Shown: positions 1 to 49,694, counted from the stretch's first letter. The stretch: DNA of 64,000 bases from a virus (IMGVR_UViG_3300020576_007358); one strand, 5' to 3'. Notes: generated by a model not told the origin, from the letters alone. Program-made: numbers and translations.

Positions 1-1225
1 GAAGCTTAAGCTTATGATCGATCATGCTGCAGACGATGTCACGCTTGTTTTTCCATTCATCTTCGAAGATGTGAAGAAGGTTAACTTGATTCTCTTGAGC
101 CTTGATTGACTTGTTGTTGTGATAGATAGAAGACTTGTTTATGACGCTGTGCCAGTACAACCCATTGTACTCGATCCCAAAGCGATGTTCCGGAACGTAG
201 ATGTCAATTTCCAGACCTTGCAGAACGTCTCTCCTACAAGAATCAACAGCAACATTCTTGCTCTTTACGTACTGATATATTTCAGATTGCGCAACTGAAC
301 CAGTCGAATCGCAAGACCAGCATCTTCCAGATTGAAGGCGCCGCAGCGAGCTGTTCCATTCTTTTGAGCACCGCGTGCACTTCACGCTTATGTTAGGAAC
401 GTTGTCATTGATGTAGCAAGATGCATCAGGCATGTTCAACGCAAGCGTTCCATGAGATTCAACTCGCTCTTTTATCTCTTCGTACATCAATCTCTTTGAT
501 GCATCAAGCTTCTCTCTCAAGTTTTTATTTGAGTGCGTTATAGCAACTTTTGCTGCCATCGCAGCGATCTTTTCGCTGCTTGCTTTGTTGAGACCTTTTG
601 CCCAAGGAACCAACTGTCCTTCTTGAAACATCCTAGAAAGATTATCGCTAGTTGCTTTAAGCCTATCGTCTGTTTCTTTAGTGAGACCCTTCGACCAGAT
701 CTTTATCTTACCTTCTTCAAATGCTGCTTTTCTTCCGGCGCTTGTTGATGCTGCTCTTGATGCGACCCTTGGGTCTGTTTCTTTAGTGAGACCTTTCGCC
801 CAACCTGTCTTGCCTCTAAGCTTGTTCTTTCTGCTTTCTGAGATTTGAGCAGCTTTTTCTGGGGAGTATACTGCGTATATGTTCGAACTGTGTCCCTTCA
901 ACGTTCCGTTATAACCGCTGTGCCAAGATATCCAAGTTGTTTCTGCTCCGCAACCGCACTTACACTTGATCGGTCCGTTGTTGACCTTATCCCAAGCATC
1001 TTTTGTCGTCATAGAGTGCAATGACTTCATGTGTTCATCGAACGCAGTTAGCTTCTTTGTGGTGAATTCGCAGAACGGACAGTTAGCCGCAGCTGGATTC
1101 TTTCTAATAGCGTACATGCAAGCTCTGCATGGTTTGTTCTTCTTGGCTGCGCCTCGGGCTGCAGCATCATTTGCATGTTCTATGATTTGTGAACATGACG
1201 GACATGTTCGTTCATTAGGTTTCAT
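1..1225 (-). CDS. Homing endonuclease-like protein; 3' end runs off the window (partial). Architecture is N-terminal C2H2/CxxC zinc fingers, repeated WAKGLTKETD motifs, and a C-terminal Vsr/DUF559-like PD-(D/E)xK nuclease (GIEYNGLYWHS...HIFEDEW).
   Basis: Own reverse-complement translation. ATG at 1225 is preceded by an in-frame TAG, and the frame stays open to position 1. It is clearly paralogous to ORF 1891..3552. It is absent from the ORF track only because it is truncated by the window edge. Confidence 0.6.
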   Translation of the reverse strand, partial: MKPNERTCPSCSQIIEHANDAAARGAAKKNKPCRACMYAIRKNPAAANCPFCEFTTKKLTAFDEHMKSLHSMTTKDAWDKVNNGPIKCKCGCGAETTWISWHSGYNGTLKGHSSNIYAVYSPEKAAQISESRKNKLRGKTGWAKGLTKETDPRVASRAASTSAGRKAAFEEGKIKIWSKGLTKETDDRLKATSDNLSRMFQEGQLVPWAKGLNKASSEKIAAMAAKVAITHSNKNLREKLDASKRLMYEEIKERVESHGTLALNMPDASCYINDNVPNISVKCTRCSKEWNSSLRRLQSGRCWSCDSTGSVAQSEIYQYVKSKNVAVDSCRRDVLQGLEIDIYVPEHRFGIEYNGLYWHSVINKSSIYHNNKSIKAQENQVNLLHIFEDEWKNKRDIVCSMIDHKLKL

Positions 1226-1332
1226 CTATTCTATAGTATCCATTGCTCAACAGAAAGTAATTTTTAGTTTGTTCTAAAGTTATCCATGCTGATATTTGTT
1301 TAACACCAACAGTGGTTTAGAAGGAAAGTACC

Positions 1333-1824
1333 ATGCCAGCAGAGACACTAGACGTTTCGTCAATGATTCCGAACAAATTCGAGCCAAAGCGTAAAAATCG
1401 TTTCGTCTTGATGATCGAAGGTATCGATGCATACCTGATTAAAACAGCAGCTCGTCCGACGGTGACGACGGAAGAAGTTGAGATTCCATTCATCAACTCT
1501 CACCGTTACCTCGCCGGCAAGACGAAGTTTAACACGATCGCTGTGACTCTCTATGATCCGATCGCACCATCCGGCGCGCAGCAGGTCATGGAGTGGATCA
1601 GAACGTGCTACGAGAGCGTGTCCGGCCGTGCTGGTTACGCTGACTTCTACAAGAGAGATATCCAGCTTAAGATGTTGGATCCTGTCGGTACAGTAGTCGA
1701 ACTATGGGATGTCAAAGGTGCATTCTGCACTGAAGTCAACTTCGGTGAATTGACATATGAAGACGGTGGACCAGGAGAAATTTCTCTAACGATCAGAGCT
1801 GATAACTTCGTTCTACAGTTCTGA
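1333..1824 (+). CDS. Tail tube protein, T4 gp19-like.
   Basis: 163 aa, the same length as T4 gp19. Blocks align: FVLMIEGI vs FQVEISY, AARPTVTTEEVEIPFINS vs ATALPAGIVEKIPVGFMN, and a C-terminal W.V.G...E..L....E block. Confidence 0.55.
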   Translation: MPAETLDVSSMIPNKFEPKRKNRFVLMIEGIDAYLIKTAARPTVTTEEVEIPFINSHRYLAGKTKFNTIAVTLYDPIAPSGAQQVMEWIRTCYESVSGRAGYADFYKRDIQLKMLDPVGTVVELWDVKGAFCTEVNFGELTYEDGGPGEISLTIRADNFVLQF

Positions 1825-1890
1825 AGCACAGATTGCAACATCAGTTGCAACTGGAATATACAACTTTGTAGGCTGTGGTATAGTTATGCC

Positions 1891-3552
1891 ATGGCCTACG
1901 ATCGTATCAAGTGTCCGAACTGTTCTCTTGATTTTGGGCAAGAGCTTCGTTTCCTAGATCATCTAACAGATGTGCATGGGATCACTGACCATGAACAACA
2001 TTACGTTGATGTTATTTTGAGTGGGATCAAACCGACATGTGGTTGTGGTTGCAACGAACACGTTAACTGGTCTAGTTGGAAGAAGGGTTACACGTCAAAG
2101 TTCAAACGTGGACACAATGCCGTTGTCGATTCCGTGTATCTAAATCCAGAGAAGCAAGTGGAATTTGCAAGGAAAAGACATGATGGTTATGCTAGTGGCC
2201 AGTACAGCACTTGGAACAAAGGCCTGACGAAAGAAACGTCTGAGAAAGTTGCGATAACTTCTCAGAAGATATCAACTTCCTTGAAAGAAGGATATAAGTC
2301 AGGAACGATCATTGATTGGCACAAAAAAGATCCTGCAGCGGCCGTCGCCGCAGCCACGAAAATCTCAAGCACAAAAAAGAAGAAATTTCAAACTGGTGAA
2401 CTGAACGTCTGGAACAAAGGTATGACTAAAGAATCAGATGAAAGAGTTGCATCAGTTTCAAACACAATAAAGCATCAAATTGAAGCGGGTCATGTTATTC
2501 CTTCAAAAAGATTGTCATCTGATGAATTTTTGTCATTGATTTCGAAACAAAAGACTTTTTCTTTGGTGTCTGATCCTTCAACATATAAAAACAAATATGT
2601 AAAATTTGACTTTAAGTGCAATACCTGCGGAAAAATATCAAAAAAGAACTTGATGATGATAAAGAGCGTTCCTGTTTGCTTTAACTGTCATCCTAAGGAA
2701 TCCAAAGCACAGATCGAAATATACGATTACGTTCGATCCTTGGCGCCTGATGCAGTGCTTTCTGATAGAACTGTAATCTCACCAAAAGAGATTGATGTGT
2801 TTGTTCCTTCGAAGAAGTTCGGAATTGAGTATGATGGTCTTTATTGGCACAGTGAAATTATCGATAGCGACAAGAAAAGAAGCCAAAAGAAGCATGATGC
2901 TGCATTGAATGTTGGAGTAAAGCTTCTTCACATATTTGAAGATGAATGGCGAGACAAGCAAGAACTTGTGAAATCAATGATAGCTTACAGGCTTGGAACA
3001 TCTTCAAAAGTAATTGGTGCACGTAAGTGTGAAGTGAAAGCACTTACAGTTCAACAAAGAAAGCAATTCATGAATGCTAATCACCTTGAAAATGATTGCA
3101 ATTCTTCTGCTTCGTGGGGATTGTTTTACAATGGTGAGCTTGTTTCCGCGCTATCACTTCGTCGACCTTTTCATGCACGTTATAGAGATGCATACGAAGT
3201 TGGCAGGTTCTGCAACCTGATGAACATAACCGTTCCAGGAGCTCTTTCTAAGTTGCTTAAAGTTGCTATAACGTGGGCGAAAAGCAAAGGTGCTGCTCGC
3301 CTGCTGTCTTACGTTGATCTTCGCATAGGGGATGGTTCTGGATACGAAAAAGCCGGCTTTAAGCTCATCTCCAGTTCAAGTCCAAGATTTTGGTGGACAG
3401 ACTACAAGAATCGCTTGAATCGTTTTGCTGTAAAAGCTGATGCATCTTCGGGTTTGACACAAATAGATGCAGCGAAGAACGCTGGCGTTGTAGCGATTTG
3501 GGGATGTGGTAATCAAATACTAGAGCTGAAAATTGAGGAGAAGAATGAATGA
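1891..3552 (+). CDS. Homing endonuclease-like protein of the Vsr-like family: zinc finger, WNKGLTKET repeats, a GIEYDGLYWHSE...HIFEDEW nuclease core, plus an unassigned C-terminal domain of about 190 aa.
   Basis: ORF track translation. Paralog of the minus-strand ORF at 1..1225. Confidence 0.6.
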   Translation: MAYDRIKCPNCSLDFGQELRFLDHLTDVHGITDHEQHYVDVILSGIKPTCGCGCNEHVNWSSWKKGYTSKFKRGHNAVVDSVYLNPEKQVEFARKRHDGYASGQYSTWNKGLTKETSEKVAITSQKISTSLKEGYKSGTIIDWHKKDPAAAVAAATKISSTKKKKFQTGELNVWNKGMTKESDERVASVSNTIKHQIEAGHVIPSKRLSSDEFLSLISKQKTFSLVSDPSTYKNKYVKFDFKCNTCGKISKKNLMMIKSVPVCFNCHPKESKAQIEIYDYVRSLAPDAVLSDRTVISPKEIDVFVPSKKFGIEYDGLYWHSEIIDSDKKRSQKKHDAALNVGVKLLHIFEDEWRDKQELVKSMIAYRLGTSSKVIGARKCEVKALTVQQRKQFMNANHLENDCNSSASWGLFYNGELVSALSLRRPFHARYRDAYEVGRFCNLMNITVPGALSKLLKVAITWAKSKGAARLLSYVDLRIGDGSGYEKAGFKLISSSSPRFWWTDYKNRLNRFAVKADASSGLTQIDAAKNAGVVAIWGCGNQILELKIEEKNE

Positions 3553-3842
3553 GTGATGTTGTGCTGCCGGGTTGGGCTAAGTGTTACAGTGATTCTCAAG
3601 CGTTGATTGATCGCATCATGCGTTACTTTCACCGTAAGTCAAGGCCAGTGTACCTCGGCGAGATCTCGATAGAGACCGGTCTGTCGTTGAAGAAGACAGA
3701 AGAGTTGCTGCAATGCTTCGTTGAAGCTCAGCTCATCAAACCAGCACCAAAAGAGACGCTGAAAAAGTTGGGATCAGATGAATCGTCCGTGGTCTTTGTG
3801 CTGTCTGGAAGTTCAGATTTGAAGTTCGCGTACCTAGAATAG
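3549..3842 (+). CDS. Hypothetical protein.
   Basis: ORF overlaps the preceding stop (ATGA). No recognisable motif. Confidence 0.3.
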   Translation: MSDVVLPGWAKCYSDSQALIDRIMRYFHRKSRPVYLGEISIETGLSLKKTEELLQCFVEAQLIKPAPKETLKKLGSDESSVVFVLSGSSDLKFAYLE

Positions 3843-3865
3843 GTTGAACGTGTGCCACGTCTTTA

Positions 3866-3894
3866 TTTACGCTGCAAGTATTGCAAAGTAGAAT
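3866..3894 (+). promoter_or_regulatory. Weak sigma70-like promoter candidate (tttacg-17 bp-tagaat) upstream of ORF 3913.
   Basis: Hexamer match only; 4/6 and 5/6. Confidence 0.15.
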
Positions 3895-3912
3895 AAGACG
3901 AAGGAATAACAC

Positions 3913-4776
3913 ATGTCAGAAGATCGCGAAGTAAAGAACGAAATTTTTAGAGGCGCCGCTGTAGATCCACGAATTCCTACGACGACTGCTGCCGAAAAGG
4001 TGAAGGCGGATTTCGGTCTAGACATTCCAGTTGAAACAGTGCCCCTGCCCAGCGCCGGCCTGACGTACCCAACGTCATCACCTTTGCACGGCAAAGAGAC
4101 TGTTGATATCAAGTCGATGACGGCTCGGGAAGAGGATATTCTCACTAGCAAAGCTCTCTTGAAGAAGGGAACTGTGATCACTGAACTGATCAAGTCATGC
4201 CTTGTTGACAAGTCTGTCGATCCACGTGACATGTTGTCTGGTGACCGCAATGCGTTGATGGTCGCGATCAGAATCACTGGTTATGGCGCTGAGTACGATG
4301 CAGAGCTAGAGTGTCCGGAATGCGGCACGAAGGCTTCTCGCCAGTTTGATCTTTCTCGTCTTCCGATCAAGAGGTTGACGATCGAACCAGTCGTTCAAGG
4401 AACGAACTTGTTTGCATGCCTCCTACCAGTCAGCAGGAAGATGGTTCACTTCAAGTTCATCACCGGTAAGGATGAAGAAGACATGTCAGCAACTGCTGAG
4501 AAGCAGAAGAAGCTTGGTCTTGCGTCTGATGCAACTGTCACCAGCAACTTGCTGTACTCTATCGTCTCGATTGATGGCATCGATGATCGTTCCAAGATCG
4601 CAGGGTTTGTCAGGTCAATGCCAGCACGAGATTCCTTGACGCTTCGTAATTACATCAAGGATCACGAGCCAGGCATTGAGATGAGGCAAGAAACTTCTTG
4701 CCCTTCATGCGATCACGAAGAGGAGGTACAGATGCCGCTAGGCGTCAACTTTCTTTGGCCTTCGGCCGGAAGATAA
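3913..4776 (+). CDS. Hypothetical tail-module protein with two CxxC motifs (CPECG, CPSCD).
   Basis: ORF track. Lies between the tail tube and tape-measure genes. Confidence 0.4.
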   Translation: MSEDREVKNEIFRGAAVDPRIPTTTAAEKVKADFGLDIPVETVPLPSAGLTYPTSSPLHGKETVDIKSMTAREEDILTSKALLKKGTVITELIKSCLVDKSVDPRDMLSGDRNALMVAIRITGYGAEYDAELECPECGTKASRQFDLSRLPIKRLTIEPVVQGTNLFACLLPVSRKMVHFKFITGKDEEDMSATAEKQKKLGLASDATVTSNLLYSIVSIDGIDDRSKIAGFVRSMPARDSLTLRNYIKDHEPGIEMRQETSCPSCDHEEEVQMPLGVNFLWPSAGR

Positions 4777-5036
4777 AGAACAGCTCATACTTGAGCCTGC
4801 GTTCTTGTGTCTTTACTACGGCGGCTGCACGTGGACGGAAACGTACAACATGCCAGTCGCCTACAAGAGATGGCTGATCGAGAGGATCGTTAAAGAGATC
4901 AATAAGGGCGGTGACGATGAACCACCACCCACAAAAGCTTTGCACCAGAACACGCCAGAAGTAAGGGCGATGCAAGGTCGTCAGCGTGCGCAGGTACCTT
5001 CAAGGCTCAGACGTTTCACTTGATGATACTTACATC

Positions 5037-5858
5037 ATGCCGAACGAGAAGTGGACGTCTGCAGGCGGTGTTGTTCTAGATTCGCTTGAAGAACCGTATC
5101 GAGTGTACGTTTGCAAGCCGTCTAACAATTACGGTCCGTGGACTTTTCCAAAAGGAAGAGTTGATGCTGGCGAAGGTCTAGAAGAAACTGCGCTCCGCGA
5201 AGTTCAAGAAGAGGCAGGCGTTCCAGCCAAGATGCTTCCGAACGGTTCGCTTGGAACTGGTGTTGGGTCGTACAGCATCACGCACTACTTCATGATGGTC
5301 AGAACCGGTCCGGTCGGTGCTCATGATTATGAGATGGAAGAAGTGAGATGCTGCACTCTTGATGAAGCGCAAGAACTGTTTGTATCAGACGGTAACAGCA
5401 GAGATGTTGGTATCCTTAATCGAGCAGCTGCATACATAGAGAAGAACGTTAAAGGAAAAGAGAAGATGTCTGAGTCAAAAGTTATCAACGAATTGAAGAC
5501 AAATTTGCTCGGTAAGATCTTCTTTGCTACGGTTGGAGCGTGGTTGGTGGGTAAAGCTGTCAACGTCAAACTTCGCGGTACTAATGAGCAAGTCCAAACC
5601 GTGGCCAACGCGTTGCTAGCGTCAAAGAAGTTTCAGGATGAGCTGAAGCACCCAGGTGCAACGGTTGAATCTGTCATGAACAAACTTAGCGTGAAACACA
5701 TGACTGCTCAAGAGTTCGAGAAGCAATTTAACATTCCGTTCCCGTTGTTATTTTATGCTACTTTTATCACTTTTGAAACTTCGCGTCGCAAATCACTTCC
5801 GAAACAACTGGTAAAGAACATGACTGATAACGAAATAAGAAACCTACTTGTAGGTTGA
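5037..5858 (+). CDS. Nudix hydrolase fused to an unknown C-terminal region of about 130 aa.
   Basis: Nudix box GRVDAGEGLEETALREVQEEAGV. ORF track start 4986 is GTG; ATG at 5037 (MPNEKW) is the likelier start. Confidence 0.55.
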   Translation: MPNEKWTSAGGVVLDSLEEPYRVYVCKPSNNYGPWTFPKGRVDAGEGLEETALREVQEEAGVPAKMLPNGSLGTGVGSYSITHYFMMVRTGPVGAHDYEMEEVRCCTLDEAQELFVSDGNSRDVGILNRAAAYIEKNVKGKEKMSESKVINELKTNLLGKIFFATVGAWLVGKAVNVKLRGTNEQVQTVANALLASKKFQDELKHPGATVESVMNKLSVKHMTAQEFEKQFNIPFPLLFYATFITFETSRRKSLPKQLVKNMTDNEIRNLLVG

Positions 5859-5865
5859 GGTCTAA

Positions 5866-8800
5866 GTGGCGGGCCCAGTAGATAAAGACCAGGTTGATAT
5901 TGCGACAAAGCTAGCTGCTTTGATGGATCGCATGGCGGTGTCGTCTGCGAAGATTGACGCGGCTTACGCTACGCAAGTAGAGTCAATGAAGCAGTTGGCT
6001 ACTACGATGGGCCAAGTTGATGTTAAGAACGTCATCGGCGAGATAGGAAAGATCAACAAAGATCTGAAGCAGATGGCTGAAAGCCTATCCAAGGCCAAGA
6101 ACATCAACCAACAAACGTTTGAAGAGATGGCGAAGAAGGCTGGTGATGCTGGAACGTCAGTGACGTCGCTTAGCGGTCGAATCAAAGAGTCGACGAAGCT
6201 CATAGAAGGAATGAATAAGACACCCCTTGATAAGCTTCATGAGGCATTGTCAGAACCGGGTGGCGCCGCAGGTGTCTTGAACAAGCAACTTGGCAAGCTT
6301 GGCATAACTGTGTCAAAGAAGTTTCCTGAAGGCATGCTGGTTGCATCAGCGGCTGCGTCGGGTTTTGCACAAGGCATTGAAAATGTCATCGCTGTCGGTA
6401 AAGCTTCACTTGGAATGCTTGAAGGTTTGACGTCTGCGTTGTTTAACATTGGTGGTGCGATCCTTGCAATCCCGTTCAAGATGTTCAAGGGATTGATCGA
6501 TATCGCAAATAATGCTGGCGCTGGATCAACTGAGCTAGCACAAGCTATCGAAAACCTCAGAAAAGAATTTGGAGCTTTGGGAACTGGATCACCAAAGGTG
6601 ATCATGGACATGTCCATCCAGTTGAAGGGATTCTCAGATACTGGCCTATCTGCATACAGGATCTTTGGTAACCTGGCACATCGACTAGAAGAATTTTTGA
6701 AGTTGGCTCAGGAGATGGGACCAAACTTCCAGAACTTTGCTGATGAATTCAAGGAGAATGGTGGTGCTCTGCTCGCCTGGCAGAAGGGTCTTGGTCTATC
6801 TGGTGAGATGATGAGGACCATGAGCGAGAGAGCAAAATCTCTCGGAACCAACATGGCGAAGCAGCTGTACGAGGTTCAGAAGCAAGCTCAGGGTCTTGGC
6901 AAAGCATTCCAGATTGATTCAAAGTTGATCTCTAGGGACATGGCAAAAGCCTTCGCTGACGTGAAGCACTTTGCTGGCGCAACTGTCAAAGAGATCGCGA
7001 CGGCGTCTGTATACGCTAGGAAGTTGGGCCTAGAGCTTGACAAGATCACTGGCACGCTAGATGCGTTTGATACTTTTGACTCAGCTGCTGAGAACGCAGC
7101 AAAGCTGTCGCAATCGTTCGGTTTGAACGTCGATGCTTTTAAGCTGATGGAAGCTCAAGATCCAGCAACGCAGATTGACATGCTGCGCAAGCAGTTTGCT
7201 GCCGCTGGTCAGGATGCATCTTCTTTCAATCGTCAGCAGATGAAGCTTCTTGCTTCAACGACCGGTCTTGATGAAGCAACTGCACGTCAAGTTTTTTCTT
7301 TGAAGAACCAAGGCGCTTCTCTTGATGACATCAAGAAGAAGAGCGAAGGCGCTGAGAAGAAGCAGATGAGCCAGGCAGAAGCCATGAAGGCTCTTGCTGA
7401 CTCGATTGAGAGACTAGTTCAGGCAGGTGGTCAGGGTTCTGGTGGTTACTTTGAGCGTTTCTTCAGAGGGTTCTTGGGAGGAATCCAAGCCTCGAAGGAG
7501 TTCAGAGATACTATTATGAATATCCGACGAGGTTTGCAACTTGTCGAGATGGCAGGTGTGAAAGCTGGTAAATTGTTCGCCCAGCTTACGCCGATCCAAG
7601 AGTTCTTGGGCGGTCTTGCTGAATTTTTCAAACCAGGAAAATTTTCTAAGCTGTTTAATGCTTTTGGCGAAGAAATCGTTGCATTCTTTGAAGATGCAAC
7701 GCACGGTGAACATTCATTCCCAAAACTGATGGAGAACATCCAGAAGCATTTCTTTGATTTCTTCAATGATCAGACACCCGCTGGACAGAAAACCATCAAG
7801 GGATTTCGAAAGATCTTTAAGATCATCATCAATGTGATTGCGGATGGCATAAGATGGGCTTCAACAAAAATTGCTGAAGTTTTGAAAAGCATCACAAAAT
7901 TGATTCTTGATCCAAAATCTGCAAAAGATGCAGTCAAGGAAGCAGGTGGAGACGGTGCTGCTGCTGCGTTCGAGATGATTCAACCTCTGATTGATTCTCT
8001 TAGAGATTCGTGGAATATTCTAAAACCAGCAATTTTTGACTTGGTTAAGGTAGTTGGTGAAAAACTGTTTGAGTACTTCACGTCTGACGACTTTATCAAT
8101 CTTGTGAAGCCGGCATTGCCATACGTGTTTGGAATCTTGTTTGGTCCTGCCATAGTCAGATCACTGTTGGGAATTATGACTTCTAGCGTTGGTTCATTGA
8201 TAGCTAACGCAATTAAAGGAGCATTCTTGGGACCTGCAGCTGGTGCTGCAGAAAGAGCTGGAACTCGAGGGTTTGGAGGTCTATTTAGGAAAATTTTTGG
8301 CGGACTTGGCAAATTCTTGGGACCTGCAGCAATCGCAGTTGCTATCGGTGATCTTGCTGTCAATGTTAACGATGCAATGAAGAAGTTTGAAGACAAGCTT
8401 GCACCAACGTTCGGTAGAACTGAAGCAAAGATGGGTGCAGCTGCGGCTGGTATTATTAATGCTTTTACGTTCGGATTGCTGCCAGACTCAATTCAAGAAA
8501 TTGTTGCTGAACAATTTGCGTCAATGTCAGAGATGATATTTGGTGCAATTCAAGATGTTTTTGGTGCTTCTTTCACTGGAAGGTTGAAGGCATATATTGG
8601 TTCTGCGCTTGATGTCTTTGGCAGCTTCGGTAACTTGATCTCTGAGATCTTCAAAGGAAAAGAGGGCGATATATCCGGCGCGCTTCAAGATCTTGGTGGC
8701 AAATTGTTGAGTTTCGTTGGCAACTGGTTCTTGTGGATGGTTGAGCAGATTCCAACGTTGTATGTGATGGCATTTCAATTCGGAACAAAGCTGCTTTCTA

Positions 8801-22331: not shown

Positions 22332-23267
22332 ATGGTCAAATGTTTGATATGCAACGTTGAAAAACCCTATTCTATCGTTGAACATCTACGTTGTAAGCAC
22401 AAATTGTCAGTTGAAGCTTATCGTAAACAATTTGCCAACGCAGAAGTGAAATCTGCGTTGGCAATTGAAGCCATTTCTAAGCAACATAAGCTTGTTTGGC
22501 AAGATGAATCATACAAGCAAAAGATGCGTGCGTCTCGACAACGCACGCATCGTACAGATGAATTTCGTAAAAAACAATCTGATATCATTAAAAGTACATA
22601 CGCCCATGGGCATAGAACTTGGAATGATGGTCTGACAAAAGATTCGGATGAAAGACTGTCTTTGATTGGAAAAAAGAATTCAGAACATTTGACAGGCAGA
22701 ACAAAAGATACACATGATTATCTTAAAGGAAAAAGTGTTTTCATGAAGAAATTTCATGAGGATAATCCCGGTGTCTTTGTTCATAATAGAATTAATTGGT
22801 CAGAAGAACGAATAAAAGAATGGAAGGAAAAAATAAGTTCATCAGTTTGTGAAGCTTACCATGATGGCAGATGTGGCAGTTCATATCGATATATCAAAGG
22901 TTGGTTCGAAACGAAAGATTCTAAAAGAGAACATTATGATTCATCATGGGAACTTTCTTTGATGGAATTCTTGGAATCATTGAATGTTACGTGGACAAAA
23001 GCACATCGAATTACGATTGATTATCAATTTAATGGTAATAGAAGATACATTCCTGATTTTTTGATATCTTGGCGTGGTAAAAATTTGCTGCTTGAATTGA
23101 AGGGTTATGTTTCATCACAGATTGAACTTGATGAAAAAACTCAAGCAGCTAAAATTTGGTCAGAGAAACAAAACATGTGTTTTTCACTGTGTCATAGCGT
23201 AAACGAAGCAAAAGATGTCATTTGTAAATTTATGACGGAGGCAAATGAAACTAGCAAAAATTGTTAA
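22332..23267 (+). CDS. Free-standing homing endonuclease (zinc finger, [10 protein letters not shown] repeats, Vsr-like core) lying between the two dUTPase/intein pieces.
   Basis: ORF track. Same family as the other Vsr-like HEs. Confidence 0.55.
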
Positions 23268-23700
23268 TATTGAGCGTTCTACTGATCGTTGTTATGATTT
23301 GACCGTTGAAAACAATCATAATTTTTTCTGTAATGATGTTCTGATTCATAACTGTGATTACAGAGGCGTTGTGAAAGTCATATTGCACAACGTAGGGTCA
23401 TCGACATTTACTGTCAACAAAGGAGATAGGATAGCCCAGCTTGTAATTACGCCGATTATTCGAGCGTCATTCTCGCACTCTCGTGAGCTGCCAGAAACCG
23501 CTCGTGGAGCCGGTGGGTTTGGTTCAACTGGTACGTTAACTGATCTGTACTTGGGTCTTTGCGTTGATTACAGTTCAACATCTCTACATAAGGTGTTAAA
23601 TGGACGAAAAATCAACGCAAAGACCCATTTTGATTGTGGATTCTCTCAATCTCTTCGTGCGTTCATACGTTGCGTTTCCTGCAATGAACGTCAATGGTGA
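23245..23700 (+). CDS. dut: Intein C-half (36 aa, ...[13 protein letters not shown]) fused to the dUTPase C-terminal piece (CDYRGVV...[10 protein letters not shown]).
   Basis: Intein blocks F/G end in HN followed by Cys+1. dUTPase motifs 3 (tail), 4 and 5 follow. Start overlaps the HE stop. Confidence 0.6.
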
Positions 23701-24583: not shown

Positions 24584-25368
24584 ACGATGACATCAAGCCG
24601 ACAACGCAAGCTTCATTCGCACAGTATGGAAAGTCCTTCCAAGAAAAGCTGTGCCAAGCGCTGCTCGTTGACAAGCAGTTTGCTGAGCAGATGCTGGAGG
24701 TCTTTAACGTAACGTACCTAGAGCCAAAATACTTGGTGTTTCTTGCTGAACGTTATTTTTCGTACGCTCAGAAGTACAAGGTGTTTCCAACGATGCAGTT
24801 GCTCATCACGATCATCAGAGACGAGCTAAAGATTGGAACTGACGTTGTCATCAGAGATCAGATAGTAGATTACTTGCAACGCATGCGCTCTAATCCTGAC
24901 GTTGGAGATCTTCAGTACGTCAAGGAAAAGGCGCTAGATTTCTGCAGGAAGCAAGCGTTGCGCAGCGCTCTTGAAGAAGCGGTTGATCAGATACAGGCAG
25001 AGAAGTATGAATCGATCGTTGAAGGCATCAAGAAAGCAGTGATGGTCGGAACTGCTCCGCAGTTGGGTCATGACTTCTTTGCCGATTACGAGAGTCGCTT
25101 CACCAAGCTGTCGAGGAATGCAATTGCTACAGGTCTTCCAGAGCTAGATAAGAAAGACATCTTGAACGGTGGGTTGGGATCAGGTGAGCTAGGTTGCGTT
25201 GTTGGTGCGACTGGAACAGGAAAGTGTGTACATCGTGATACTTACATTCAGGTAAAATATACTGGAGTGAGAATTGATGGAAAACTATACAAGCCTTGGG
25301 ATCGAATTGCAACAAGGCGTGGAATCATCTTTGCTAGAGACGTCGTCGAATCAGATGAACTTGAGTGA
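24580..25368 (+). CDS. DnaB/gp41-like replicative helicase N-terminal piece, ending in P-loop GATGTGK, followed by an intein N-half (CVHRDTYIQ..., 47 aa) and a stop.
   Basis: Walker A is interrupted exactly at the GK|S position by Cys+1, the classic DnaB P-loop intein site. Confidence 0.6.
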   Translation: MNDDIKPTTQASFAQYGKSFQEKLCQALLVDKQFAEQMLEVFNVTYLEPKYLVFLAERYFSYAQKYKVFPTMQLLITIIRDELKIGTDVVIRDQIVDYLQRMRSNPDVGDLQYVKEKALDFCRKQALRSALEEAVDQIQAEKYESIVEGIKKAVMVGTAPQLGHDFFADYESRFTKLSRNAIATGLPELDKKDILNGGLGSGELGCVVGATGTGKCVHRDTYIQVKYTGVRIDGKLYKPWDRIATRRGIIFARDVVESDELE

Positions 25369-26458
25369 TAAATTCAAGTGTCAATATTGTTGTCAGCAAT
25401 ACAACAATCAATCTGGGTTGATCACGCATATTCGACGCAAGCATTCAACAACATTCACAGATTACAAGTTGAAATTTTCTCATCTTTACAAAGTTGAAAA
25501 AAGAGAAAAAAAACTTAGTCTAAATGAACTAGCTAGACGTAAACGTGATGAAAAAGCTATTGATGATGGACTTCAAGTTTTGAAGTGTGAAATTTGCAAT
25601 TATGAATCTTACTACAGTTTGATATCGCACATCGTAAGAAAACACGGTGTGGCTATGAATGAATATCGATCAAATTTCCCTTCAGCAGTTGTACAGCAAG
25701 TTACATCAGATGTCAGAGAAAAAAATAGAAAGAATGCAACGTTGCATCTTTCAGATCCTATCAAGAAAGCGAATTTTCTAAAACGAAGATCTTTTCCTTC
25801 TGAGATGAAACACTGGATCAATAAGGGATTTTCATCAGACGAAGCAAAGAAAAAAGTTGCTGAATTTCAACAAGCGATTGCGCTTAAAGGTAATAATGAA
25901 AAAACGAAGGCAAAACAGTCAATTAGAAATTCTGGTCAAAATAACCCAATGTCATTGACATCAATTTCGAAACGTCTTAACGTTTCGAAGGATGACGCAA
26001 GCAAATTGACACCGTGTTATGGAAGATCAGGCATCAAACATCCGATGTTTGGTAAAAAACACAGTATTGAAGCTTTGAACAAAATTGGTCAACACATTAA
26101 TCACACCGGACGTTCGAAAATCGAACACGAAATGTCTGATCTGATCATTTCATTGTATGGTGGTCTAAAGAACGTAGGAGTAAATGGTTGGTGCTGTGAT
26201 TACGTTAATCACGATCGTCAGATTATAGTTGAATTTTTTGGTGATTATTGGCATCACAATCCGGAAAAATATGATAGAAATTTTGTCAACAACTTTACTA
26301 AACGTTCATCTGAAGAAGTTTGGTTGCGTGATGCACGCAAATTGAATGAACTTAGAGAGAGCGGCTTTAACGTTGTTGTGATATGGGAATCTGATTGGCG
26401 AAACAAAAAAGAAGACAGTTTGAACAGGATAAAAGATGCTTTCAATAGAACATTGTGA
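25355..26458 (+). CDS. Free-standing homing endonuclease (C2H2 zinc fingers, Vsr-like core EFFGDYWH...VVIWESDW) between the helicase pieces.
   Basis: ORF 25274..26458. ATG 25355 (MNLSDKFKCQYC) overlaps the intein-N stop. Confidence 0.55.
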   Translation: MNLSDKFKCQYCCQQYNNQSGLITHIRRKHSTTFTDYKLKFSHLYKVEKREKKLSLNELARRKRDEKAIDDGLQVLKCEICNYESYYSLISHIVRKHGVAMNEYRSNFPSAVVQQVTSDVREKNRKNATLHLSDPIKKANFLKRRSFPSEMKHWINKGFSSDEAKKKVAEFQQAIALKGNNEKTKAKQSIRNSGQNNPMSLTSISKRLNVSKDDASKLTPCYGRSGIKHPMFGKKHSIEALNKIGQHINHTGRSKIEHEMSDLIISLYGGLKNVGVNGWCCDYVNHDRQIIVEFFGDYWHHNPEKYDRNFVNNFTKRSSEEVWLRDARKLNELRESGFNVVVIWESDWRNKKEDSLNRIKDAFNRTL

Positions 26459-33349: not shown

Positions 33350-34525
33350 ATGGCGCGTATACTACGAACATATCAATTTAATTGCAAGCAATGCGGTAAA
33401 AAGTGTGAAAAGTCTAACCGTAGTGGAAAACAACCAAATTTTTGCGATACTTCATGTAGTCAAATTTGGTCATATGCACATGGTCGAATTAAAACTGCTT
33501 CACGTGAATTCAAAATTCACCAACATGGCGTAGAAAGAGTTCATGAACTCGAAAAATTGCAGTATTACACATTTACATGCGAATACTGCAATGCTAACGT
33601 TACAAAGCGTAAAAGATCTCCTTTGCCAAGATTTTGCAATCGAAAGTGTTCAACGCAATTTACAGCAGTTCATGGTCGTAAACCAACGATTAACGCTGTA
33701 CATCGTAAAGCTATGAGCGAAAGAGCTACGGCTAAGTTGCTAGAGCAACCAGAGAATTTGTATTCTTGGAATACAATTAAAGGATGGTACAAAGGTAACT
33801 TCTTTAGAAGTTCGTATGAATATCACTTTCTTAAGTGGCTCGAAACAAAACAAGTCAATTTGCAGACAGATTTGAAAAAAGTACCTACTATTCAATATGA
33901 GTTTGACGGTCGTGGTCACACATATATCCCAGATTTTTACGTTGAAAAATGGAGAACGTTGTTTGAAGTTAAAAGTTCTTATGCGTGTAAAAATGATCCA
34001 AAAGTTCTTGCAAAAGCTGTTGCAGCAGAAGATTTCTGTAAAGACAAGCAATTGACTTATCAAATCATAACAGAAGATACATTGCCAGAATTGAAATCAG
34101 ACATAACTTTGATTAAGCATGATAAGTGTGTATTTTTGTTGTCAACATCTAAATCGACTGATGATCGACTTGAACACATGTTCGTTGAACAAATGAAGTT
34201 CATGAAACTCCTGCGTCAGGAAAGAAATTTCCCAGAATTTCCAGTTGATGTTTCTTCAAAACCTGGTCAGAAACTTCTTAAAGAAGTTGCACATGAATGC
34301 ATGCATGAATTGTTTGAATCTGTGCATTTGCTTCGTAATTCAAAATCACACAGAATATCTGATGTGCAAGATTTTGATAAAGAGGCCTTTTTGGAAGAGT
34401 TGTCAGATACGTTGCATTATCTGATGGAATTGTTTATCTTGAGTGGTATTACTAGCAAAGATTTGTACAAAGCATATATGAAAAAAGGAACAATCAATTT
34501 TGCTAGAATATTGAGCAATTATTGA
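33350..34525 (+). CDS. Homing endonuclease-like protein: N-terminal CxxC zinc fingers, PD-(D/E)xK core (YIPDFYV...FEVK), and a C-terminal extension whose last residues duplicate the N-terminus of the downstream Hsp20 gene.
   Basis: ORF track. Repeated AYMKKG..N..RI motif at 34480 and 34555. Confidence 0.5.
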   Translation: MARILRTYQFNCKQCGKKCEKSNRSGKQPNFCDTSCSQIWSYAHGRIKTASREFKIHQHGVERVHELEKLQYYTFTCEYCNANVTKRKRSPLPRFCNRKCSTQFTAVHGRKPTINAVHRKAMSERATAKLLEQPENLYSWNTIKGWYKGNFFRSSYEYHFLKWLETKQVNLQTDLKKVPTIQYEFDGRGHTYIPDFYVEKWRTLFEVKSSYACKNDPKVLAKAVAAEDFCKDKQLTYQIITEDTLPELKSDITLIKHDKCVFLLSTSKSTDDRLEHMFVEQMKFMKLLRQERNFPEFPVDVSSKPGQKLLKEVAHECMHELFESVHLLRNSKSHRISDVQDFDKEAFLEELSDTLHYLMELFILSGITSKDLYKAYMKKGTINFARILSNY

Positions 34526-35121
34526 TTGCATCAGGTGTAACGCTTGATGAGATGCACGAAGCGTACATGAAAAAAGGTGAAGTCAACCGAAAAAGGATCG
34601 AATCAGGGTACTTAGCCCCTGTACATTGCTTAAGGAGTGTTTTATCATGTTTTCACGAGATTGGTTCTCGTGGAAAGGAAAACACTGCTATGCTAACTCG
34701 TTACTATGATACGATGAGAAATCCAACCTACAAGTTCGGTGACTTTAACGCAATCTTTGATGACATGCTTTCAATTGATCCATTTAAGTCAGAATCTTCT
34801 ATCTGGACGAAGAAGATCATGAACAATCTACCAGAACCAACGTTTTGGCATGAGAAGACTGAAGAAGGTTCTGCTCTTCACGTTGAACTACCGGGATACA
34901 AGAAAGAAGACGTATCGATAACGCTGCAAGACAAGACTCTTGTTGTCAAGGCTGAACGTAAGATGCCCGGCGGTGCGAAGACTGTCTCGTGGAGCTGGCG
35001 CATTCAGGATACGTACGAGTCCAATCCAACGTTTGCGAAGCTAGCTGATGGCATCCTTACGATAGGATTGAAGAGTAAACAACCACCACCTGAAGAAGCA
35101 CTCAGCATAAAGATCGAGTAA
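34522..35121 (+). CDS. Small heat-shock protein, Hsp20/alpha-crystallin family.
   Basis: ACD-like core HVELPGYKKEDVSITLQDKTLVVKAERK. Confidence 0.55.
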   Translation: MIASGVTLDEMHEAYMKKGEVNRKRIESGYLAPVHCLRSVLSCFHEIGSRGKENTAMLTRYYDTMRNPTYKFGDFNAIFDDMLSIDPFKSESSIWTKKIMNNLPEPTFWHEKTEEGSALHVELPGYKKEDVSITLQDKTLVVKAERKMPGGAKTVSWSWRIQDTYESNPTFAKLADGILTIGLKSKQPPPEEALSIKIE

Positions 35122-48036: not shown

Positions 48037-49047
48037 ATGTCGAAGAAAGTTCTGATCACGGGTATCGCTGGTTTTCTTGGTTCGCATCTTGCGTTGCATC
48101 ACATCGCAGCCGGTGATGAGGTGATCGGTCTGGATGATTTCTCTTCGTCGAAGAGAGATTCTCTTCATCTTGCTACGATCAAGCGCCTCATGGCAGAGAA
48201 GAAGTTGGGGGAAGTCTATGAGTGCGACATTGCAGAGCAGAAGCAGGTTCATTACTGCTTGCAGAAGCACGCAATGAAAAAGTCACCAGCGGGAATTGAT
48301 CTGATCTATAACTTCGCTTGCCCTGCTTCACCGCCTCGATACCAACAGATTCCAACGAAGACGATGATGACATGCGTGGCCGGAACTAACAACATCATCG
48401 ACGTTGCTATGTGTAACAATTCTGTAGTTGTGCACGCCTCAACGTCTGAAGTGTACGGCGATCCGGATATCACTCCTCAAGTTGAATCTTATAGGGGTTG
48501 CGTGAACCCTTACGGTCCCCGAGCATGCTACGATGAAGGCAAGCGCGCAGCAGAAGCGTTGTGCTACGATTCTCTTTTCAAGTACGGCGTAGACGTACGT
48601 CTCGTTAGAATATTCAACACGTATGGCCCTCATCTTGATGTAACAGACGGACGTGTAGTTTCAAACTTTATAACTCAAGCCTTGTACAACAAAGATATCA
48701 CAATCTATGGTGATGGTTCTCAAACAAGGTCATTTTGTTACGTAGATGATCTGATACGTGGAATTGTTTCTTTGGGAGCCTTGAGCTACAATCCAAAAAC
48801 GCCCATTAATTTGGGAAATCCAAATGAGTTTACCATTAAAGAACTTGCAGATGTTGTTATGTCTTTGATTCCAAGTAGCAAATCAAAATTTGTATGGCAG
48901 TCCATACCTATTGATGATCCACTTCAGAGAAAACCAGATATTACTATAGCGAAAGAAATTCTTAAATGGCAACCGAGTGTGCAATTGCTGGAAGGTCTTC
49001 AGAAGACGATACACTACATTCAGAACGTGAATGTGCAATTTACGTGA
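48037..49047 (+). CDS. NAD-dependent epimerase/dehydratase (UDP-glucuronate decarboxylase / UXS-like).
   Basis: GIAGFLGSHL Rossmann motif and YDEGKRAAE catalytic YxxxK. Confidence 0.6.
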   Translation: MSKKVLITGIAGFLGSHLALHHIAAGDEVIGLDDFSSSKRDSLHLATIKRLMAEKKLGEVYECDIAEQKQVHYCLQKHAMKKSPAGIDLIYNFACPASPPRYQQIPTKTMMTCVAGTNNIIDVAMCNNSVVVHASTSEVYGDPDITPQVESYRGCVNPYGPRACYDEGKRAAEALCYDSLFKYGVDVRLVRIFNTYGPHLDVTDGRVVSNFITQALYNKDITIYGDGSQTRSFCYVDDLIRGIVSLGALSYNPKTPINLGNPNEFTIKELADVVMSLIPSSKSKFVWQSIPIDDPLQRKPDITIAKEILKWQPSVQLLEGLQKTIHYIQNVNVQFT

Positions 49048-49694
49048 TCACTAACAATGTTAATAACAAACGATATGTTGGGAAATCTGTTCAGCCAACT
49101 AGACGTTGGCTTGGGCACAAATCTTATGCCCGACGTGGTGATCTAAGAAGATTGTATTGTTCGATGCGAAAACATGGCGTTGAACAGTTCAAATTTGAAA
49201 TATTGACGTGGTGTGATAGTGAAGACGCTGCTTTTCTTGAAGAAAAAAGAATAGTAACTGAGTGGAATCTATGTGATCCACGTGTAGGTTATAACTTGAC
49301 TAGTGGTGGTCGTGGTGGATGTAGAGTGTCAGATCAAGTACGTCATAGAATGAAATTGCGTGAACCTTCAATGAAGGGTCGTAAACACACTGAAGAAACA
49401 AAGCGTCTATTGTCAATAGCTAGCTCTGGTGCTAATAATGCAAATTTTGGTAAACATAAAAGTGATGAAACTAAGCAAAAAATGAGTGATTCACAAAAAG
49501 GTCGTAAATTTACTGATGATCATCGTGAAAAGCTACGCCAGGCGAAGCTTGGAAAAAAGACAGGACGTAGTATACCACCAGAAATGGCTATAGCAAGAAG
49601 AAATATGAAAGGAACTATCGAGGCAAAAGAAGCTGCTAAATTGGGTTGGATAACACGTCGTGCCAAAATTAATGATGATACTGTAAATCAGTAA
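49044..49694 (+). CDS. GIY-YIG homing endonuclease with NUMOD3 repeats.
   Basis: VITNNVNNKRYVGKS, R..H, YNLTSGG. GTG 49044 overlaps the epimerase stop. ORF track 48966..49694. Confidence 0.55.
   Translation: MITNNVNNKRYVGKSVQPTRRWLGHKSYARRGDLRRLYCSMRKHGVEQFKFEILTWCDSEDAAFLEEKRIVTEWNLCDPRVGYNLTSGGRGGCRVSDQVRHRMKLREPSMKGRKHTEETKRLLSIASSGANNANFGKHKSDETKQKMSDSQKGRKFTDDHREKLRQAKLGKKTGRSIPPEMAIARRNMKGTIEAKEAAKLGWITRRAKINDDTVNQ

Follow-up and report, generated by a model that had tools for sequence, protein, structure and literature searches.

Two probable Hef-type homing endonucleases, each with a Mom-like GNAT domain, flank the tail-tube gene of a large uncultured myovirus

In the 64,000-nt stretch of viral DNA analysed here (the window), a tail-tube gene lies between two endonuclease-like reading frames on opposite strands. 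This arrangement raises two questions: has one of two paralogous nucleases gained a domain that the other lacks, and what do such proteins do beside a structural gene? A preliminary description of the window had assigned both frames to Vsr-like homing endonucleases with a shared zinc-finger / WxKGLTKET-repeat / GIEY.GLYWHS...HIFEDEW layout, and had proposed that one of them carries an extra 190-aa domain. Both frames are real, they bracket a gp19-like gene as described, and their paralogy, common layout and Vsr-like, homing-endonuclease character were all recovered (Table 1). The extra domain is a different matter. We call the upstream gene U (minus copy) and the downstream gene D (plus copy).

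The minus frame runs to the window start without an in-window stop codon, and its break at residue 408 coincides exactly with the start of the C-terminal domain. Its match to PHROG 3339 (E 1e-34, profile positions 56-354 of 536) likewise ends at the window edge. A Logan contig (SRR32380203_33183, here L001) matches 13,552 nt of the window without a single mismatch and contains the full minus gene (L001:7548-9335), which encodes 595 aa and extends 563 nt past the window start. In a full-length comparison via this contig, the last ~185 aa of the minus copy align with the C-terminal domain of the plus copy; the missing part of U is the Mom-like GNAT domain described below. Hence the apparent asymmetry arises because the window boundary truncates the minus gene. 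The two proteins are 38% identical over 554 aa (E 7e-119; E 1e-51 for the visible part of U).

The idea that one copy acquired a C-terminal add-on, or a read-through tail, absent from other homing endonucleases could draw on the in-window view, in which a C-terminal HMM detects the domain in the plus copy only and three shorter Vsr-like frames do lack it. However, the 595-aa minus gene rejects a one-copy gain. Nor is the domain without counterpart in other homing endonucleases, as had been stated: members of the Hef-like family carry it as standard, PHROG 3339 and 559 span it, it occurs in hundreds of ~550-aa homologues, and as a tblastn query on its own it matched 336 isolated-phage records (238 at ≥80% coverage). 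Poor conservation and lack of fold similarity, the signs by which a read-through tail was to be recognised, were not what we found: the domain has a pLDDT of ~95, invariant residues in 94 relatives and a dN/dS of 0.08-0.29. We give the add-on next to no credence, and regard this correction, i.e. that there was no asymmetric domain gain, as the main outcome of our analysis. The count of seven family members in the window could not be reproduced either; we found five Vsr-like frames and one relative, with the full architecture in U and D only.

Table 1. Positions of U, D, their predicted modules, neighbouring structural genes and other related reading frames in the window
Feature	Position	Strand	Details
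U (upstream) gene, probable Hef-type homing endonuclease	1..1225	(-)	First 408 codons; rest outside window
Minus copy, Vsr-like (EDxHD-type) nuclease	2..304	(-)	Residues 308-408 (EIDIYVP...GIEYNGLYWHS...HIFEDEW); nuclease HMM E 8e-37
Minus copy, four-Cys zinc ribbon	308..385	(-)	C282, C285, C301, C304
Minus copy, three helical repeats	521..805	(-)	Residues 141-235; ~33 aa each, W-x-K-G-L-T/N-K-E/A-T/S; 'mid' HMM E 2e-27
Minus copy, C2H2 zinc finger	1016..1087	(-)	Residues 47-70 (C49/C52/H65/H70); weak Pfam C2H2-type hits; aligns with plus-copy finger
gp19-like tail-tube gene	1333..1824	(+)	163 aa; flanked by both endonuclease genes
D (downstream) gene, probable Hef-type homing endonuclease	1891..3552	(+)	Complete, 553 aa; PHROG 3339 E 1.6e-72, full length
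Plus copy, C2H2 zinc finger	1906..1977	(+)	Residues 6-29 (C8, C11, H24, H29); beta-beta-alpha in AF2 model
Plus copy, Cys-rich knuckle	2032..2121	(+)	Residues 48-77 (C50, C52, C54 ... H75); pLDDT ~90
Plus copy, helical WxKG(L/M)TKE(T/S) repeats	2203..2490	(+)	Residues 105-200; two clear repeat units plus a degenerate third
Plus copy, four-Cys zinc ribbon	2605..2694	(+)	C243, C246, C263, C266; Pfam Zn_ribbon_8, weak
Plus copy, Vsr-like (EDxHD-type) nuclease	2698..3000	(+)	Residues 270-370 (D302, E313, H320, K334, D351)
Plus copy, Mom-like GNAT domain	3007..3534	(+)	Residues 373-548 (H398, R439, G450, S453, D476, R478, Y485; RFWWTD...GLTQxxAAxxAGV segment)
Baseplate-hub-type gene, PF12322	3913..4776	(+)	Next conserved structural gene downstream of D site
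Zinc finger and repeat relative	22332-23267	(+)	PD...ELK-type nuclease motif at end (by eye)
Vsr-like nuclease core	25274-26458	(+)	Shorter frame without C-terminal domain
Vsr-like nuclease core	51637-52596	(+)	Shorter frame without C-terminal domain
Vsr-like nuclease core	59458-60375	(-)	Shorter frame without C-terminal domain

U and D are inserted into a module of sheath, tube and baseplate-hub genes that is otherwise conserved; the phage is a large uncultured myovirus. The tube gene matched PF06841 (E 1.8e-6, 28.3 bits with a cut-off of 28.2) and PHROG 4542 (tail tube, E 5e-29), its product is 47% identical to the annotated tail tube of Microcystis phage Mel-JY01, and the sheath gene lies upstream of it in L001. 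U is inserted upstream of the tube gene and divergent from it; D lies downstream and is co-directional. An obvious Shine-Dalgarno sequence was absent at both U and D.

Both proteins would read, from the N-terminus, as zinc finger(s) and WxKGLTKET repeats, a four-Cys zinc ribbon, a Vsr-like nuclease and a Mom-family GNAT domain. In the plus copy the finger residues are ≥90% conserved in our alignment A1, with weak C2H2 hits in Pfam and PDB, and the columns of the Cys-rich knuckle, which may bind metal, are nearly invariant. The minus copy has an additional CxxC...CxxC pair (C8, C11, C33, C36) N-terminal to its C2H2 finger. The repeats are predicted to form a DNA-binding arm in both copies, and together with the zinc finger(s) they might read the target sequence. 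The zinc-ribbon cysteines are invariant in A1 for the plus copy, and the columns equivalent to those of the minus copy are 86-98% Cys in 94 relatives. Finger, knuckle and repeats make up the hypervariable, mosaic part of D (1891-2490). In both copies the N-terminal DNA-binding region is a hot spot of mosaicism: its modules are swapped as cassettes between near-identical genomes, and the sharp mosaic boundaries suggest a possible route by which target specificity is exchanged.

The nuclease is Vsr-like both by sequence and by fold comparison (PD-(D/E)XK-variant fold), and its top PDB sequence hit is the homing endonuclease I-Bth0305I (PDB 3r3p, E 2.4e-5). Catalytic residues pair as D302/D196, H320/H213 and D351/D222, and E313 is also shared. 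D302, E313, H320 and K334 are kept in all 94 relatives and D351 in 93; the minus copy has the same residues. The catalytic positions are the Asp on the strand, the Glu of xIExxG, the His of YWH and the Asp of E-D-E-W. Judged by this alignment the catalytic set is complete. I-Bth0305I has an N-terminal DNA-binding arm before its nuclease as well, but it is an intron-encoded protein of 266 aa with NUMOD2/HTH motifs, and lacks both a zinc ribbon and a GNAT domain, the nuclease being its last domain (PMC3239194). The same Vsr-like EDxHD family was listed to include Hef-type enzymes (Taylor et al. 2011, PMC3239194).

By homology and architecture, the window proteins are further members of the known Hef-like family (PHROG 3339/559), whose tblastn matches are annotated as Hef-like, Hef15 or Hef60. 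The D protein matched 419 isolated-phage records, many of them annotated Hef-like, with only 30-33% identity and only over residues ~183-548; among these records none covered ≥80% of the query, and the N-terminal arm of C2H2 finger, Cys knuckle and repeats had no match. One homologue of 544 aa (E 9e-40) is encoded between nrdA and nrdB in the T4-like coliphage FL23. Since the prototype hef sits at the nrdA-nrdB locus (PMC2988022), the identity of our family with the U5 Hef would rest on this homologue at the same place. Hef and Hef-like free-standing homing endonucleases are known from T4-related, Campylobacter, ViI-like and jumbo phages (Sandegren, Nord and Sjoberg 2005, as cited in PMC2988022 and PMC3296691), and F-LimVIII of LIMEstone1 is a Hef-like gene adjoining a tail-tube gene. 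U and D share with Hef the core of zinc ribbon, Vsr-like nuclease and C-terminal domain, the free-standing position beside conserved genes and the presence of several copies per genome; they differ in that two position-specific lineages flank one gene.

We surveyed the flanks of the tube gene in 53 related loci from uncultured phages, plus 2 isolates. Both copies are full length in 17 of the 53 loci, and ~10-11 contain just U or just D; several contain truncated remnants (L022, L030, L032, L038, L039, L040, L068), and some relatives have neither copy at the flanks of the tube gene. In most upstream-only loci the hub gene follows the tube gene closely, with a gap of 88-441 bp. The nearest isolates, Mel-JY01 and Flavobacterium immuto phages, have sheath, tube and hub with no insert. 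This pattern of both, one, remnant or no copy fits mobile homing elements. A neighbour-joining tree places U and D copies of the closer-relative clade, including the window genome, in separate and largely position-specific clades, and mixes the positions in more distant short-form clades. From their sequences, U and D are anciently diverged paralogues, each its own position-specific lineage. Purifying selection acts on all domains of both copies (dN/dS 0.04-0.3).

Could the pair have become domesticated, with U and D as core genes of the phage lineage that serve, for example, tail-gene expression or DNA processing and no longer move? The order minus-Hef, tube, plus-Hef is conserved in ten loci (L004, L005, L006, L009, L011, L014, L016, L018, L023, L037), and position-specific orthologous clades and strongly purifying selection would be expected of such genes. 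However, many relatives have one copy, remnants or none, N-terminal cassettes are exchanged between near-identical genomes, and a GIY-YIG endonuclease gene in the same sheath-tube gap (L001) marks an insertion hot spot, so that we consider domestication highly improbable.

In our opinion U and D are probably two modular, free-standing homing endonucleases of the Hef type that diverged anciently, flank the tube gene and carry a C-terminal Mom-family GNAT domain. During mixed infection the nuclease would cut the corresponding region in relatives without the gene, and recombinational repair would then copy the endonuclease gene together with flanking markers to the recipient, each lineage staying at its own site. 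In this presumed lifestyle they resemble the Seg and Mob enzymes of T4, which passages of PMC2988022 and PMC10448857 portray as intergenic, beside conserved genes and sporadic, with recombination boundaries at the gene; the catalytic folds of Seg and Mob (GIY-YIG, HNH) are unrelated, however, and a modification-type domain is not part of them. In this group of large uncultured phages the tube-gene flanks are occupied in some genomes, empty in others and decaying in still others, a natural set that could serve for studying the homing cycle.

What does the C-terminal domain contribute? A GNAT fold was found for it, in agreement with the acyltransferase fold that had been suggested earlier. When 27 C-terminal domains were compared with 11 phage Mom homologues by hhalign, the probability was 96.6% (E 5.5e-10, 124 columns). 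Pfam Mom (PF25680) matched 8 of the 27 relatives (best E 2.5e-6) and PF00583 matched 4 (best E 1.4e-6); the domain of the window plus protein itself had no Pfam Mom match at E≤1 and hit only PF00583 (E 0.039). Mu Mom is a GNAT that transfers glycine from Gly-tRNAGly to the N6 of adenine in dsDNA (PMC13219725; PDB 8BV8). Its residues H58, R111, D149, R151 and Y159, all essential or important (PMC13219725), correspond to H398, R439, D476, R478 and Y485 of the plus copy. All 94 members have H398, R439, G450 and D476, 91 have R478, and 86 have Y485, with Trp in the other 8. Because most residues essential in Mu Mom are kept, the Mom-like domain very likely has an active site of the Mom type at which nucleic acid is bound. 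An extra helical segment follows the GNAT core in the AF2 model at the place of the HTH-like insertion of Mom (HTH_3 matched weakly in 4 of the 27 relatives), and in Mom that insertion (residues ~175-209) is essential (PMC13219725).

Mu Mom is a stand-alone protein, whereas the Mom-like domain of U and D shares its chain with a nuclease and a DNA-binding arm; identity is ~20%, and the NSES loop, S124 and the dimer residue W48 of Mom are not conserved. The loop is replaced by G-x-L-[SG], with N121 becoming an invariant Gly and E123 becoming Leu, Ala or Phe. The S124 equivalent is S453 in the plus copy and Gly in the minus copy (Ser 59, Gly 22, Asp 8 and Ala 2 in the family), and the D149 equivalent is Asn in the T4-like homologue. 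Canonical acetyl-CoA GNATs have a pyrophosphate motif, Q/R-x-x-G-x-G/A, between beta4 and alpha3. At this site the family reads V-[PR]-G-x-L-[SG]-[KR]-L, with an invariant first Gly and with Leu, Ala or Phe at the second position. With D149 replaced in the T4-like homologue and S124 variable, transferase activity is not assured for all members.

These losses, including that of an S124 whose change to Ala inactivates Mom (PMC13219725), together with the altered motif would be expected if the domain had no catalytic function and had been put to new use in DNA binding, base flipping or dimerisation, so that it helps the nuclease to recognise or grip its target and transfers nothing. Uniformly high pLDDT over residues 270-550, which comprise nuclease and GNAT, would also fit one compact unit in the model. 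However, the three invariant residues H398, R439 and D476 and the nearly invariant R478, in 94 diverged members, match Mom residues that cannot be mutated without loss or a strong reduction of activity (PMC13219725). Polar residues kept this strictly are found more typically in active sites than in scaffolds; an inert domain thus seems somewhat unlikely to us. Within the homing explanation the domain might either mark the carrier's own target adenines, giving self-immunity, or only aid target recognition. Tentatively, it could be an active, site-directed DNA adenine acyl- or aminoacyl-transferase, perhaps tRNA-dependent like Mu Mom, which is steered by the N-terminal arm of the nuclease to mark the carrier's own target sites. 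If so, each protein would be a self-contained homing element that cuts others and protects self, and a swap of N-terminal cassettes would retarget cutting and protection together. The conservation of the Mom-type site matters at a time when the chemistry of Mom has become known, with Gly-tRNA as donor and dsDNA as acceptor, and is open to assay.

Fusions of an REase-fold nuclease and a Mom-family GNAT in one polypeptide have already been described in jumbo phages, in passages of Iyer, Anantharaman, Krishnan, Burroughs and Aravind (2021, PMC7824862) that attribute five of them to PA5oct. In our searches PA5oct-type phages had five matches to the Mom-like domain and also provided a top BFVD structural match. 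The same passages interpret the fusions as restriction-modification-like, and the Mom/GNAT passages make no mention of the Hef or homing literature; we prefer the homing explanation. Our findings bridge two literatures that do not cite each other in the papers searchable, with Hef homing experimentally supported and the nuclease-Mom fusions predicted. Applied to U and D, the proposal of Iyer et al. would make each a single-chain weapon in which the Mom-like domain modifies the phage's own adenines and the nuclease destroys unmodified host or superinfecting DNA, the gene being kept for the benefit of the phage and not mainly for homing. Equal conservation of the residues of the Mom-type active site and of the nuclease catalytic residues, the purifying selection on both copies, their joint retention among relatives with protein identities as low as 54% and the direct modification of dsDNA by Mom could all be understood in this way. 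Yet the long and variable zinc-finger/repeat arm suggests long, rare targets instead of general restriction, the S124 equivalent varies, the closest isolates are without the genes, and genes that are present, missing or decaying from relative to relative, at two fixed positions next to a conserved structural gene, follow the pattern of homing elements. We hold this weapon-like role to be unlikely, and it partly overlaps with homing, because homing and competitor exclusion use the same cut.

The retention of the U and D pair over this range of relatives is steadier than that of many free-standing endonuclease genes, and it may be that the phage profits from them.

The two large open reading frames (ORFs) at the start of the window are real, and so is their paralogy: they match each other with an E value of 1e-51 over the visible part. 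As the preliminary description had noted, they lie on opposite strands, divergently, on either side of a tail-tube gene, and each has a zinc finger, repeats of the WxKGLTKET type and the nuclease motifs GIEY(D/N)GLYWHS...HIFEDEW; the finger is of the C2H2 type, and a four-Cys ribbon is likewise common to both copies. The 163-aa protein encoded between them matched the PHROG tail-tube profile with an E value of 5e-29 and was barely over the curated cut-off for Pfam PF06841 (E 1.8e-6). Neither endonuclease protein had a match in NCBIfam, and the plus protein had no Pfam model at or above its curated cut-off. Megablast of window positions 1-6000 found no match among isolate phages; this phage is without a close cultured relative.

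The plus copy had also been thought to be alone in carrying an extra C-terminal domain of about 190 aa. This apparent asymmetry is an artefact of the window edge. Inside the window the minus ORF is cut off at residue 408, and in the PHROG 3339 alignment it covers profile positions 56-354 of 536, against 67-532 for the plus copy. Using the plus protein we found a 39.9-kb public contig (L001, Logan contig SRR32380203_33183) that shares 13,552 nt with the window with 0 mismatches. On this contig the minus gene (L001:7548-9335) encodes 595 aa, its product is 38% identical to the plus protein over 554 aa (E 7e-119), and its final ~185 residues align to the C-terminal region of the plus copy. The domain is therefore present in both copies, and on this point the preliminary description was wrong. 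Judging from homologous sequences, the domain is not unusual in the family either: hundreds of metagenomic homologues have lengths of ~550 aa at 98-100% query coverage, and tblastn with the C-terminal domain alone returned 336 isolate-phage records, 238 of them with at least 80% coverage, whose annotations include 'Hef-like homing endonuclease', 'Hef15', 'homing endonuclease' and 'putative nuclease/acetyltransferase protein'.

Features of the two endonuclease genes, their surroundings and related ORFs (window positions unless stated otherwise)
Feature	Position	Strand	Remarks
Plus copy ORF	1891..3552	+	complete, 553 aa
gp19-type tail-tube ORF	1333..1824	+	163 aa; Pfam PF06841, PHROG tail tube
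Minus copy ORF	open from 1225 to base 1	-	stop codon absent within window
C2H2 finger	plus protein residues 6-29		beta-beta-alpha in AlphaFold2 model
Cys-rich knuckle	plus protein C50, C52, C54, H75
Helical region	plus protein residues 105-200		WxKG(L/M)TKE(T/S) repeats, two clear and one degenerate
Linker	plus protein, between repeats and four-Cys ribbon
Four-Cys ribbon	plus protein C243, C246, C263, C266
Nuclease domain	plus protein residues 270-370
C-terminal alpha/beta domain	plus protein residues 373-548
GIY-YIG endonuclease gene (286 aa) and 113-aa ORF	L001:6270-7485		just outside window, upstream of minus copy
FL23 homologue (L100)	PP400787, 87214-88848		annotated hypothetical; nuclease and Mom-like domains, SYGNRRW
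Vsr-like nuclease-core ORF	25274-26458	+	no C-terminal Mom-like domain; domain HMMs
Vsr-like nuclease-core ORF	51637-52596	+	no C-terminal Mom-like domain; domain HMMs
Vsr-like nuclease-core ORF	59458-60375	-	no C-terminal Mom-like domain; domain HMMs
Zinc-finger relative, 311 aa	22332-23267	+	C2H2 finger and one repeat like Hef N-terminus, HMM E 1.7e-9

The AlphaFold2 model of the plus protein, built with 50 homologues in the alignment, has a mean pLDDT of 89.8, rising to ~95 over residues 270-550. An earlier guess that the C-terminal region is acyltransferase-like was right and can be refined to a GNAT domain resembling Mom, the DNA-modifying protein of phage Mu. When 27 isolated C-terminal domains were compared with Pfam, the Mom family was the commonest match (8/27, best E 2.5e-6); the domain of the window's plus protein itself matched only PF00583 (E 0.039). 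In hhalign, the C-terminal alignment matched Mu Mom as a lone sequence only weakly (E 0.059); the comparison became convincing once 11 Mom homologues taken from phage records were combined into a profile (probability 96.6%, E 5.5e-10, 124 columns). This second alignment places five essential or important Mom residues (H58, R111, D149, R151 and Y159; PMC13219725). The first three correspond to H398, R439 and D476, each kept in 94/94 family members; R151 corresponds to R478 (91/94), and Y159 to Y485, which is Tyr in 86/94 and Trp in 8. The NSES loop of Mu Mom is the exception to this conservation: its S124 is S453 in the plus copy, Gly in the minus copy and variable family-wide. In addition, a T4-like homologue has Asn at the position of D149. 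The C-terminal domain is thus a Mom-like GNAT domain, a putative transferase, with an active-site pocket under strong constraint. That H398, R439 and D476 never vary and R478 hardly does speaks for a working active site. The variable S124 position and the change from Asp to Asn in the T4-like branch call for caution, and the domain may instead lack catalysis and serve in DNA binding or base flipping.

By homology these proteins belong with those annotated as Hef-like homing endonucleases. The T4-like coliphage FL23 has a 544-aa homologue between nrdA and nrdB (32% identical in the nuclease and GNAT domains, E 9e-40). This is the same nrdA-nrdB locus that is occupied by the prototype hef of phage U5, which cuts nrdB (PMC2988022). 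Other inserts interrupt these two genes in FL23 as well. The architecture is not new, nor is its occurrence in large phages: the nuclease-Mom fusion was described earlier by Iyer et al. (2021, PMC7824862). A literature search on fused Mom, Vsr and GNAT returned no papers. The interest of the present genes is modest; it lies in a strongly conserved Mom-like pocket within a family of homing endonucleases that has experimental grounding, and in the natural series of states in which the sites beside the tail-tube gene are found.

In the first relatives compared, the order minus-Hef, tube, plus-Hef held even at 54% protein identity, which initially suggested a conserved core feature. This reading of a conserved or domesticated pair was set aside as the main one after a survey of 80 IMG/VR loci and comparison with isolates. 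The tube gene was recognisable in 53 loci. Both copies are full length, in long or short form, in 17/53; ~10/53 have only the downstream copy and ~11/53 only the upstream copy, the latter mostly with the baseplate-hub gene 88-441 bp after the tube gene. Examples of empty sites are L024, L025 and L027 for the downstream position and L012, L013 and L015 for the upstream one. Truncated remnants occupy the downstream site in six related loci (L022, L030, L032, L038, L040 and L068) and the upstream site in another (L039). Among cultured phages the nearest are Microcystis phage Mel-JY01 and the Flavobacterium immuto phages; they have sheath, tube and hub genes in succession with gaps of 46-138 bp and lack the insert. 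A GIY-YIG endonuclease gene and a 113-aa ORF lie in the sheath-tube gap of the window genome as well, so that the stretch from sheath to hub has three endonuclease-type insertions absent from the closest isolates. A neighbour-joining tree built on the shared core separates the upstream from the downstream copies of closer relatives, in clades that are largely position-specific; positions are intermingled in the more distant, short-form clades. Each position-specific clade contains one of the window's two copies, which are therefore long-diverged paralogues that have kept to their respective sites and did not arise by a recent duplication. Such a mixture of occupied, empty and decaying sites, at two set places next to a highly conserved gene, is expected from the homing cycle, by which the genes are inferred to spread.

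Both genes are under purifying selection: against close relatives dN/dS is 0.04-0.3 in all regions, the Mom-like part among them, which excludes a decaying tail. The possibility that the C-terminal region is a read-through tail, raised in case it showed no fold similarity and poor conservation, is ruled out by the confident model, the purifying selection and the residue conservation. Near-identical genomes share 93-100% of their nucleotides with the window in this region, and identity falls sharply in the N-terminal DNA-binding parts of both genes. Positions 1891-2490 are 82-84% identical in three related loci, L007, L002 and L004 (in L004 to 2290); in L004 identity goes down to 53-70% over 2291-2690 and is 83-89% over 691-1290. 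The nuclease and Mom-like parts are 96-99% identical. Synonymous divergence in the plus copy is 0.46-0.56 in the N-terminal third and 0.04-0.05 in the Mom-like part; that of flanking genes is 0.11-0.21. This pattern looks like an exchange of the DNA-recognition cassette between near-identical genomes, not relaxed constraint.

The catalytic residues are intact, and a possible mechanism can be drawn from free-standing phage homing endonucleases and the EDxHD homing endonuclease I-Bth0305I. The arm of zinc finger and repeats would read a long target, the Vsr-like domain would cut the allele of co-infecting relatives without the gene, and recombinational repair would then transfer the gene with its flanking DNA to the recipient. 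The Mom-like domain may guard the carrier's own site by adenine modification; such self-protection would move the restriction-modification-like idea of Iyer et al. onto a homing element.

Several smaller features lie around the plus copy. A perfect 7-bp hairpin without a T tract (TTGCAAC-ATCA-GTTGCAA, 1833-1850) is found immediately 3' of the tube stop, and a promoter-like TATACA-16-TATAGT with TG extension (1857-1884) just 5' of the plus copy start. A promoter and terminator scan gave 11 promoter-like sites versus 6.1 expected, none compelling at gene starts, and no obvious Shine-Dalgarno sequence was seen at either endonuclease gene. The start of a 97-aa ORF (3549-3842, plus strand) overlaps the plus copy stop (ATGA); its product has a weak IclR-type HTH match (E 0.011). 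Relatives have homologues of this ORF in the tube-hub interval whether or not they carry the downstream endonuclease gene, and it is therefore a resident gene outside the mobile unit.

The window had been credited with seven members of the family. The full architecture is present in two ORFs only: phmmer with the plus copy against all window ORFs matched just the two copies, and a search of the window for a seventh member gave none at E<1. Domain HMMs were needed to detect three shorter Vsr-like ORFs, which probably represent additional free-standing endonuclease genes from the same superfamily. Their nuclease core reads xIE/QVxGxYWH ... W-E-x-D at the C-terminal end, and the one at 25274-26458 also bears two C2H2 fingers and NUMOD-like motifs. 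The C-terminal half of the zinc-finger relative differs; by eye it contains ...IPDF...LLELKG, possibly a classical PD-(D/E)xK motif, and its residues 195-294 weakly match a PHROG 'head closure' profile.

Other segments of the window are paralogous as well. A two-gene module occurs twice (48037-49694 and 61767-63798) with reversed gene order; its epimerase-like ORFs (48037-49047 and 62830-63798; PHROG 540) are 29.5% identical and the adjacent ORFs (48966-49694 and 61767-62555) 25.5%. Three short segments of 31-78 aa with 42-50% identity are common to otherwise unlike ORFs (23245-23700 and 52547-56059; 34522-35121 and the end of 33350-34525; 62503-62781 and 60414-61739), and these may be N- or C-terminal modules that were duplicated, or gene ends altered by frameshifts.
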